DNA of 1,552 nucleotides from Escherichia coli (GCF_013315695.1 NZ_CP054362.1); one strand, 5' to 3'. Shown: positions 136 through 1,204, counted from the first letter of the stretch. Translations and numbers: made by a program. The notes: a model not told the origin generated them from the letters alone.

Positions 136-612
136 ATGTTTATTGATTCAGAAAAACGACTGAAACAACTTTCAGATGAGGCAAAGAAAAACACCGAGGA
201 TCTCGAAGAAGCAAAGAAGAATTCAAGGTTTACACAGGTATCCCCAAAAGGTTGGGAACGCGTTCGAGAGCTGCTGAAGGATAGCCAAGGCATATCAGCA
301 CTGAAGCTGTACTCATTTTTAGCGGAGCATATCGATCCTACGTGTGGCGCTGTCGTTGCGGATCAGCAATTCCTAGCTGAAAAACTTGGAGTTAGCAGAA
401 GCACAATTATTCGTTGGCTCAATTACTTAGAATCAAAAAATGCATTAGTTAGAATCCCCGTTGCTGGTAAGGTTTGTGCGTATGCCCTCGATCCACATGA
501 AGTCTGGAAGGGATACAACACTACGAAAAACCATGCAGCATTTGTCACTAAAACACTGGTCAACAAAGACGGTGATATTCAGCGCCGAATCATGGCCATG
601 TTTTCAAATTGA
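136..612 (+). CDS. repA: Small winged-helix replication initiator protein (RepA/RepL-like), 158 aa, about 18 kDa
   Basis: Only ORF with a proper RBS and ATG start, ending in TGA at 610-612. Its GC content is clearly lower than the downstream DNA. A helix-turn-helix motif is visible at residues ~77-100 (QQFLAEKLGVSRSTIIRWLNYLES, nt 364-435), followed by a wing-like beta region (VRIPVAGKVCAYALDPHEVWKG). Iteron-like repeats sit directly upstream. The Rep call and the symbol are inferred from architecture and motif resemblance, not from a search. Confidence 0.8.
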   Translation: MFIDSEKRLKQLSDEAKKNTEDLEEAKKNSRFTQVSPKGWERVRELLKDSQGISALKLYSFLAEHIDPTCGAVVADQQFLAEKLGVSRSTIIRWLNYLESKNALVRIPVAGKVCAYALDPHEVWKGYNTTKNHAAFVTKTLVNKDGDIQRRIMAMFSN

Positions 613-948
613 GCCAGCGGCAGGCGGACAATCAGGGGCTACGTGTTAACGTTCTGACCATGATTGTCTATCCTGCATTGCTCTTTTGCCGCCTCAAAAT
701 CCCTTGCGTGTTTTTGCTCCCCGATCTCCAGAACGACCGAGCCGCCACGGTTCCGGCAGCGCCTTGAGCGCAACCGGAAACCGTCTGGGGAGAACCCCAG
801 ACCCCCATCGCTGTAACACCGACGGTCTACGACCACCTACCAACCGAGTGACTGCCTGTACCGTGCAAATGGGCTTTGCAGGGGGCTGGCGCGGTTCCTG
901 GCGACCTGAAAGCCCCTGGCTAGGGGTATCGGCGCGCCTGACCTCCTG

Positions 949-969
949 AAACGCTCTGTAAGCGTTTTT
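949..969 (+). terminator. Hairpin aaacgct-ctgta-agcgttt followed by tt; weak candidate intrinsic terminator or single-strand structural element
   Basis: 7-bp stem (949-955 pairs with 961-967), 5-nt loop, T-run 965-969. The stem is AT-rich and lies ~340 nt downstream of the rep stop, so a terminator role is uncertain. Confidence 0.2.
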
Positions 970-979
970 CGCGCCTTCC

Positions 980-995
980 ATGCCCTGACGGGCAT
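980..995. other. Hairpin atgccc-tgac-gggcat (6-bp stem, 4-nt loop)
   Basis: Exact inverted repeat read from sequence; function unknown. Possibly part of a single-strand initiation or priming signal. Confidence 0.3.
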
Positions 996-1106
996 TTAAA
1001 CCCCGCCTCGTGCGTCTGAGAGCTTCTGAGCGCGTTTGAAGGGCTATCTGACGACTCATCCCCGAAAGAACAACAGCGGAATCACCGACAACATGCGAGA
1101 GGTGGC

Positions 1107-1168
1107 ACCGCTCGCCGCAGCCCCAGCGACCGAACGTTAGTGAGCGAGTGGGCGAGGAAGCGGAAGAG
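1107..1168. other. ColE1/pMB1-like conserved non-coding segment, matching the block just downstream of the ColE1 replication origin; candidate lagging-strand priming (primosome assembly) region
   Basis: accgctcgccgcagcc...gtgagcgag...gcgaggaagcggaagag closely matches the pBR322/pUC backbone sequence as I remember it. No RNA I/RNA II-like sequence precedes it. The priming-site function is an inference. Confidence 0.45.
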
Positions 1169-1204
1169 AACCGGAAACCACATTGAGCACGTACGCACTG
1201 ATAC

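Follow-up and report, generated by a model that had tools for sequence, protein, structure and literature searches.

A GC step downstream of repA in a 1,552-bp Escherichia coli plasmid as the probable junction between a replicon and a portable non-coding transfer and priming cassette

The window analysed here, a whole stretch of 1,552 nucleotides (nt) from Escherichia coli (GCF_013315695.1, NZ_CP054362.1), is a complete circular plasmid of the pKL1/Col(MG828) type in which the replication gene repA is the only credible gene. Just downstream of repA the guanine-plus-cytosine (GC) content rises, and this step is quite probably the junction between the replicon and a portable non-coding cassette of transfer and priming sites. 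The first module, from 1465 through the circle to 610 (43% GC), would be the replicon, made of an AT-rich origin/operator region and repA. The second, 611-1464 (59% GC), encodes no protein and would carry the cis-acting sites for the transfer of a relaxase-less mini-plasmid by a co-resident helper. It holds three sites resembling an origin of transfer (oriT), with the putative types IncX4/TaxC (611-686, + strand), IncI1/NikAB (1202-1298, + strand) and ColE1/MbeA (1396-1464, - strand, facing the other two). With an IncX, IncI1 or ColE1-type plasmid in the cell, relaxosomes supplied in trans would act on the matching oriT by nicking it and exporting one strand; a putative primosome assembly site (pas) on the + strand would prime the complementary strand in the recipient, as well as lagging-strand synthesis during vegetative replication, and a conserved core possibly joins the pas in priming. 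Cleavage, nick positions and priming are what we infer from these sites, and relaxase-free hitch-hiking on several helper plasmids is the likely function of the cassette.

Base composition of the plasmid

The initial annotation had estimated by hand about 33-52% GC for the rep gene and about 65% for 721-780, and had placed a compositional change near 613-700. The computed values agree with these estimates: repA (136-612) has 43.0% GC, with 60-nt windows ranging from 31.7 to 55.0%, the interval 721-780 has 66.7%, and the stop codon, TGA, lies at 610-612 as first indicated. A circular two-change-point likelihood scan found the step and delimited a GC-rich domain at 613-1492 (59.1% GC), with a log-likelihood gain of 21.3; in the 40 shuffles that served as null, the gain had a mean of 4.3 and a maximum of 8.1. 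Split at the boundaries given by homology (see below), the circle has 43.4% GC over 698 nt vs 58.8% over 854 nt (chi-square 35.7, p = 2e-9).

The switch had been described as sharp and as completed within tens of bases after the stop codon. A first step does coincide with the stop codon, but the main one comes about 115 nt later. In 30-nt windows the GC content is 57% at 606-650, falls to 43-53% at 636-725 and does not attain 63-77% before about 726; the mean over 611-725 is about 50-57%, and values above 60% begin near 726. The likelihood of the left edge is flat over about 580-730, with 611-613 and 716 scoring alike, and the flagged interval 613-700 has 52.3% GC. The plateau of intermediate GC that separates the stop codon from the main step is explained by the composition of the IncX4-type oriT unit (611-686), which has 53% GC in the window vs 41% in its IncX4 homologue. 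The stretch of intermediate GC ahead of the main step also includes a variable spacer (687-725, 53.8% GC), where the relatives carry insertions or replacements of 60-90 nt in a four-cassette alignment.

Further downstream, 701-1470 has 59.6% GC and 1480-1552 has 32.9%. The GC-rich domain is closed by a second compositional boundary at about 1465-1492, which was absent from the initial annotation, and since the molecule is circular the two boundaries divide it into two compositional halves. The right edge was scanned at 1487-1492 rather than at 1464 because of a GC-rich hairpin at 1461-1489 (AAGGGCGTTGCG...CGCAACACCCTT, z = -2.9), which lies just outside the shared cassette and is specific to the pKL1-type replicon.

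It should be noted that a GC step is an ordinary finding of composition, and that module junctions in mosaic plasmids commonly show such steps. GC richness is also partly a property of the hairpin-rich sites themselves. As regards k-mer composition, the distance in dinucleotide signature between the two modules (104) is not above the values found within modules (120-186), the sequences being too short for this comparison to inform. The different origins first proposed for the two modules do find support, which comes from the recurrence of the cassette on different replicons and not from composition.

Recurrence of the GC-rich block on different replicons

In other plasmids the block 611-1464 is found again; apart from indels and one diverged stretch, most of its length is about 90-96% identical in nucleotide sequence. 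The whole cassette is present in pEA13_8 (1589 bp), whose Rep is 59.6% identical to the RepA of the window, and in pU12A_H (1506 bp), whose Rep is about 30% identical over 54 amino acids (aa) of the helix-turn-helix (HTH). CP077349.1 (1822 bp) has a Rep 42.3% identical, an extra open reading frame (ORF) and the whole cassette without the IncI1-type oriT. In pJD053-2K (2313 bp), which has an unrelated RepL, only the core is found (window 736-1196). The three whole-cassette relatives were aligned to the window from a common anchor. Their shared DNA begins with GAGCCAGCGG/GAGCCAGCGGCAGG at window position 611, overlapping the rep stop codon, and ends with GCCCCGACACCCC at about 1461-1464; beyond both ends the sequences are unrelated. 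In each of these relatives the cassette has 55-59% GC and the remainder 35-43%.

The cassettes are about 90-96% identical while the Reps are far more diverged or non-homologous, which calls for recombination between lineages. Separate histories of the two halves are therefore supported on comparative and not on compositional grounds. That both halves instead co-evolved in one lineage, the GC gap reflecting the different constraints on an AT-rich origin and gene and on hairpin-rich non-coding DNA, is very improbable. Such sites are indeed GC-rich elsewhere too (the pas homologue has 62% GC in a 41%-GC IncX4 plasmid, and the IncI1 oriT homologue 55%), and the dinucleotide signature is alike in both modules. 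However, the same cassette is found joined, with identical end points, to four or more different replication modules, and only recombination between lineages can bring this about; congruent Rep and cassette trees are impossible for the unrelated RepL.

The last ~30 nt of repA (...RRIMAMFSN; 580-612 in the window, 1120-1155 in pEA13_8) are nearly identical in the window and in pEA13_8, unlike the two Reps as a whole, which are only 60% identical. In addition, CP077349.1 (940-956) retains ATGGCCAT right before GAGCC. Some recombination junctions hence lie slightly inside the 3' end of rep and not exactly at 611.

The cassette has recombined onto several different mini-replicons, and the IncI1 and IncX pieces are add-ons that are gained, lost or swapped among the relatives. 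Since both ends of the cassette are putative oriT units, the exchange might, on a speculative view, be driven by relaxase-mediated oriT-oriT recombination or by abortive co-transfer, and not by ordinary homologous recombination. Pieces of the block have, furthermore, homologues at functional positions in IncX4, IncI1 and ColE1-type plasmids, as described in the following sections.

The putative IncX4-type oriT at the junction

The segment 611-686 (+ strand), which includes most of the interval flagged initially, is a putative IncX4 (TaxC, MOBP)-type oriT, recognized by its homology to an IncX4 site near taxA-taxC, a MOBP nick consensus and its fold. It is composed of a leader, GAGCCAGCGGCAGGC, an imperfect palindrome, GGACAATCAGGGGCTACGTGTTAACGTTCTGACCATGATTGTC (627-668, centre GTTAAC), and TATCCTGCATTG. 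The nick motif, TATCCTGC at 669-676, directly abuts the palindrome, and the nick is predicted on the + strand between 675 and 676, 7 nt past the right arm. The MOBP nick consensus is 5'-(C/T)ATCCTG(C/T)-3' and follows an inverted repeat in RP4-type oriTs (PMC3772185). The window contains two YATCCTGY motifs vs 0.18 expected; both belong to the + strand, and an inverted repeat precedes each of them. As single-stranded DNA (ssDNA), 611-686 folds better than shuffles (z = -3.5).

This segment is 84-85% identical to a 95-nt inverted repeat present twice in the IncX4 plasmid NZ_CP044406.1. Of the two copies, that at 15589-15643 is situated some 50 bp upstream of the ddp1(taxA)-taxC relaxase operon, and the other is found just past the replication gene pir. 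A similar site is carried by 96 conjugative plasmids of about 33-38 kb, mostly at two places in each. Two functional oriTs are also announced for R6K, the IncX prototype, in the title of Avila et al. 1996, as cited in PMC3316555. With the duplicated oriT of IncX plasmids (R6K and NZ_CP044406.1) the window shares the leader, the palindrome, TATCCTGC and the unit boundary of the 95-nt repeat. Unlike NZ_CP044406.1, it has one copy, with the higher GC content given above, and neither taxA nor taxC in cis. Cassette and IncX4 repeat unit have the same left end, and a whole oriT unit thus seems to have been captured. In CP077349.1 (954-1020) the leader and TATCCTGC are the same and the palindrome is different, with TGCATGCA instead of GTTAAC at its centre; this other palindrome may confer a changed specificity for accessory proteins.

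The putative IncI1-type oriT and ColE1-type bom

The putative IncI1 (R64, NikA/NikB)-type oriT occupies 1202-1298 on the + strand and is 92.2% identical over 90 nt to IncI plasmids, with both inverted repeats and the nick motif kept. Its parts are a hairpin at 1205-1229, another inverted repeat at about 1243-1266 and, at 1276-1283, the nick motif CATCCTGT, for which a + strand nick between 1282 and 1283 is predicted. Matches to this segment occur in more than 1000 conjugative plasmids; that of pSL476_91 is 12 bp away from where nikA-nikB begins. Its ssDNA fold is also better than that of shuffles (z = -4.4). CP077349.1 is devoid of exactly the 1202-1298 unit, which is therefore separable.

The right end of the cassette, 1396-1464, is a putative ColE1-type oriT (bom) on the - strand, 95-100% identical over about 60 nt to many ColE1-like plasmids of 4-9 kb. 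Read on that strand, it shows a hairpin (1458-1434) and then ...GTATACTGG/CTTAC. It is 95% identical over 62 nt to the presumed bom of pBR322. The ColE1 nick presumably falls between GTATACTGG and CTTA, which would place the predicted nick here at about 1400/1401 on the - strand. In a ColE1-like plasmid (L007) the bom match lies about 90 bp beyond the rop stop codon, the usual place of bom.

The hairpin of the bom-like site is the exact reverse complement of 1205-1229. The two segments form a perfect inverted repeat of 25 nt (GGGGTGTCGGGGCGAAGCCCTGACC and its complement, 1205-1229 and 1434-1458, 25/25 positions, 204 nt apart), and the IncI1-type and ColE1-type oriTs thus face each other. This repeat could promote inversion or deletion between the two oriTs. 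The breakpoint of the loss of the IncI1 unit in CP077349.1 falls inside the 25-nt element. The spacer between the converging oriTs (1299-1395, 52.6% GC) shows moderate conservation, and one relative lacks 13 nt of it.

The primosome-site homologue

Between the core and the IncI1-type oriT, 1099-1168 (+ sense) is a putative ColE1 ssiA-like (n'-type, PriA-dependent) primosome assembly site, identified by homology and position. Over 62 nt it shares 98% identity with ColE1-like plasmids, and over 70 nt 81% with the presumed sequence of pUC19. The hexamer AAGCGG is a hallmark of n'-type primosome assembly sites. It occurs here within GAAGCGG at 1157-1163; AAGCGG-like motifs are not enriched in the window, which has only this one exact site. 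In ColE1 two single-strand initiation (ssi) sites have been described, ssiA and ssiB, of which ssiA is the n'-type primosome assembly site (PMC3167613). A second pas, corresponding to the opposite-strand ssiB, was not recognized in the window.

In the ColE1-like plasmid L007 the homologue lies at 3348-3406 and RNAI (Rfam) at 2688-2789, from which we estimate that the homologue is about 110-170 nt downstream of ori; the bom match comes 95 bp after it, and both order and orientation agree with those of the window. The A-rich stretch just ahead of the pas in a ColE1-like plasmid aligns with 1066-1098. A plasmid of 3.4 kb with rop and mob genes, NZ_CP090531.1, has the ColE1-like A-rich tract followed by the pas and gave no Rfam RNAI match (E <= 1); it may hold a divergent RNAI/RNAII. 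In an IncX4 plasmid the pas homologue is 75% identical and is situated on the nicked strand, between oriT and the iterons.

The window resembles the ori-rop segment of ColE1/pMB1, where ssiA and then bom/oriT occur in the same order, orientation and sequence family. It differs in having no RNAII/RNAI origin upstream and in the IncI1-type oriT placed between pas and bom. This likeness raises the idea that the cassette is a decaying relic of a ColE1-like ori-rop segment fused to a pKL1-type replicon, with functionless sites, which we consider quite unlikely. Order, spacing and orientation from pas to bom do match those of ColE1-like plasmids, and of mob genes, rop and RNAI none is left in the window. 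Neutral relics, however, should decay, and this block is conserved at about 90-96% across Reps that are 42-60% identical or unrelated; the IncX- and IncI1-type oriTs are foreign to a ColE1 backbone, and some 5% of the complete E. coli genomes analysed contain the cassette.

The conserved core

The portion 726-1098 is a conserved GC-rich non-coding core (61% GC), in which an element of about 190 nt (807-995) and a number of short hairpins are found. No other piece of the cassette is shared so widely: in the RepL plasmid pJD053-2K, window positions 736-1196 are found at 88.8% identity, and the core is also common to plasmids of 3-5 kb. Its ssDNA fold is better than that of shuffles on both strands (z = -2.9 for +, -2.3 for -). 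Two local hairpins vary by paired substitutions, as judged by eye. Among 11 copies of the 807-995 element there was no net covariation, compensatory hairpin changes being poorly placed by the alignment.

As a hypothesis only, the core might be a single-strand initiation or ssDNA-promoter-like signal. From its orientation it could, again hypothetically, act on the - strand, the strand that the ColE1-type nick would export; the + strand, on which the pas reads, would be the one exported from the IncX- and IncI1-type nicks. The ssDNA promoter Frpo was considered as an identity for the core and rejected: compared by BLAST with Frpo1 and Frpo2 of ColIb-P9 and Frpo2 of F, with sequences from the supplement of PMC11541004, its best match had E = 0.06 over 24 nt. 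A match of 926-990 in an IncF plasmid lies outside the leading region.

In other plasmids, CP088859.1 carries two direct copies (2501-2678 and 3359-3536), 80-82% identical to window 807-984, that flank ccdA-ccdB, which suggests that the element can bracket a mobile or recombining unit. One copy of the 807-995 element is located upstream of small genes in a MOBC/MPF_T Klebsiella plasmid. In the IncX4 plasmid NZ_CP044406.1 we found a perfect direct repeat of 300 nt (17541-17840 and 19621-19920) just beyond the oriT. Both copies stand directly upstream of a gene, in one case that of a J-domain protein, and the repeat shares short blocks with window 870-883 and 968-1000. This repeat could be an ssDNA-promoter or ssi-type element of IncX plasmids.

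Coding, RNA and replicon searches in the GC-rich half

All ORFs of at least 44 aa (one of 226 aa on the - strand and nine others) were compared with Pfam and NCBIfam without a match, and among relaxase, coupling-protein and mating-pair genes none was found, repA being the only gene. An Rfam scan of the window returned zero matches at E <= 1. A hidden ColE1-type RNAII/RNAI replicon was rejected on the same search, which detects RNAI in L007 and none in the window. A scan for sigma-70 promoters and terminators gave nothing above shuffles.

Coding potential is not conserved in the GC-rich half. The stop-free stretch has 240 codons in the window, 112 in pEA13_8 and 88-92 in CP077349.1, the frame being shortened in these two plasmids by indels of 1, 13 and about 90 nt. 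The GC-rich half hence appears to be non-coding. That it encodes a protein, namely the 226-aa ORF of the - strand (694-1374), the compositional step then being an ordinary gene boundary, is extremely improbable. The ORF exists and several records annotate a 'hypothetical protein' there, but, besides having no family match, its frame is broken by indels in the relatives; long open frames are expected by chance in 59%-GC DNA, and the region is made of known non-coding sites.

Transfer versus replication

The cassette may also be regarded from the side of replication, with a GC-rich half that is mainly a replication accessory (lagging-strand priming, part of the origin or multimer control) and oriTs that are passengers used rarely or never. 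We find this unlikely. In its favour, core and pas (736-1196) are the most widely shared part, even where the flanking oriTs differ, as in pJD053-2K; the pas adjoins ColE1-type origins and, in IncX4, is upstream of the iterons; 1066-1098 can be aligned with the A-rich stretch ahead of the pas in a ColE1-like plasmid; and removal of the ssi in pIGMS31-type plasmids alters copy number and causes multimers (bioRxiv 10.1101/2022.12.05.519187), multimer control having been described for ssi elements of pHW126-like plasmids. On the other hand, three oriT-like units with nick motifs and hairpins intact, at more than 90% identity in hundreds of records, would be difficult to account for if transfer were not under selection. 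Nor do the two roles exclude each other.

Several points weigh against a junction with a transfer and priming cassette. GC richness alone is no proof of foreign origin and marks a module boundary only, and the dinucleotide signature fails to separate the modules. The oriT and pas assignments were all made from sequence homology and position. Identity of the IncX-type site to that of IncX4 is no more than 84-85%, and its leader is 21 nt shorter; relaxase accessory proteins can be highly specific, and diverged sites may fail. Our literature search found no publication mapping an IncX4 oriT, and adjacency to taxA-taxC is the sole argument for that site. The comparisons with pUC19 and pBR322 and the ColE1 nick position depend on presumed sequences. 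The pas homologue (1099-1168) folds no better than shuffles (minimum free energy -13.8 kcal/mol, z = -0.55), the core (726-1098), which is 43% of the cassette, is left unexplained, and the cassette may serve mainly replication rather than transfer.

With these points in view, we still favour a cassette of transfer and priming sites joined to the replicon at the GC step. A bolder version, a selfish, non-coding and universal hitch-hiking cassette with three head-to-head oriTs for as many relaxase families, a + strand pas for the IncX and IncI1 nicks and a core that primes the - strand for ColE1-type nicks, moving between unrelated mini-replicons, is speculative and would have a small chance of being right.

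Comparison with known mobilizable plasmids

The closest experimental parallel is pEC156, a mob-less E. coli plasmid whose F-type and R64-type oriTs are functional and which is mobilised in trans by F and R64 (PMC4743918). Like pEC156, the plasmid of the window is small and relaxase-less and has more than one putative oriT from conjugative plasmids, one of them R64-type (about 93 bp in pEC156). In contrast, pEC156 has a ColE1 RNAII/RNAI replicon, 4.3 kb and a cargo of the EcoVIII restriction-modification system plus cer, whereas the window is Rep-dependent and has no cargo. No F-type oriT was found in the window, where the partners of the R64-type site would be IncX-type and ColE1-type.

Plasmids that have only an oriT are common in E. 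coli (PMC10123127, Ares-Arroyo, Coluzzi and Rocha). About 88% of the oriT-bearing E. coli plasmids have a single oriT, and those with several tend to carry several relaxases (PMC10123127). Like these pOriT plasmids, the window has neither relaxase nor mating-pair genes, and its putative sites include the R64-like and ColE1-like oriT families of PMC10123127; the IncX4-type site may fall in the R6K-like family of that work. Unlike a typical pOriT, it would have three oriT-like sites on 1.5 kb and zero relaxase, an unusual end of the class.

Identity and distribution of the plasmid

The window matches pVR50I of E. coli VR50 (NZ_CP011143.1, 1552 bp) at 100% over its full length, and many further 1552-bp records from Escherichia, Klebsiella and Enterobacter are equally identical. 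In PLSDB/MOB-suite, NZ_CP011143.1 has the replicon Col(MG828), one annotated gene (HTH-domain protein) and the call "mobilizable", despite having no relaxase. Plasmids of 1549-1570 bp are 93-96% identical to the window (94-95% for the relatives of 1549 bp), more than 800 PLSDB records are of cassette-bearing plasmids, and 292 of the 5426 complete E. coli genomes (~5%) carry at least 80% of it.

The features of the Col(MG828)/pKL1 type are present: a circle of about 1.5 kb, a lone small HTH rep gene and repeats ahead of rep (3-50). The window is one of the pKL1-like/Col(MG828) cryptic 1.5-kb plasmids of Enterobacteriaceae, such as pVR50I, NC_022661.1 and NC_018660.1 (1549 bp, E. coli O104:H4), with which it shares size, single HTH rep and replicon type. 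The records of these plasmids annotate the rep gene only and leave the anatomy of the GC-rich cassette unannotated, and in the literature on pKL1 and Col(MG828) we found no paper describing it. A record labelled Corynebacterium renale (NC_004833.1, 1488 bp) agrees with window 600-1100 at 100% identity; one would not expect this host label on an enterobacterial plasmid, and the record may be a contaminant or mislabelled.

The replicon module

The gene repA (136-612, + strand) encodes a winged-HTH replication protein of 158 aa (Pfam HTH_36, E = 1.5e-8, with a weak RepL match), and its GC content at third codon positions is 39.6%. Upstream of it lies a replication-control region (1-135, 47.4% GC) that belongs to the AT-richer replicon module. 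This region is common only to pKL1-like relatives and is absent from pU12A_H, pEA13_8, CP077349.1 and pJD053-2K. It contains direct repeats with TGTCGCATCC at 3-25 and 26-48 and a perfect palindrome of 12 nt (26-37/39-50), which from their position are probably RepA operator or iteron sites. One of the repeat copies holds ATCCTG by coincidence. On the other side, the replicon module starts at 1465-1552 with a hairpin followed by an AT-rich tract (1480-1552, 33% GC) that runs across the circle into 1-135 and is probably the origin region. An inverted repeat of 24 nt (109-132/684-707, 79% complementary) brackets repA and the IncX-type oriT and may be due to chance.

Conclusions

The structure described here is plasmid mosaicism of an ordinary kind, and the databases already contain this plasmid hundreds of times. 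Our modest addition is the anatomy of its GC-rich half, including the reading of the flagged interval 613-700 as a putative IncX-type oriT. Plasmids of 1.5 kb are among the commonest replicons of E. coli and are usually dismissed as cryptic. If the proposed reading is true, their persistence and spread in Escherichia, Klebsiella, Enterobacter and Shigella would be explained by the parasitising of several conjugation systems without any transfer gene of their own. They would then be a compact natural example of the oriT-only lifestyle, and a lead for the design of mobilizable mini-vectors and for tracing the helper plasmids in circulation.

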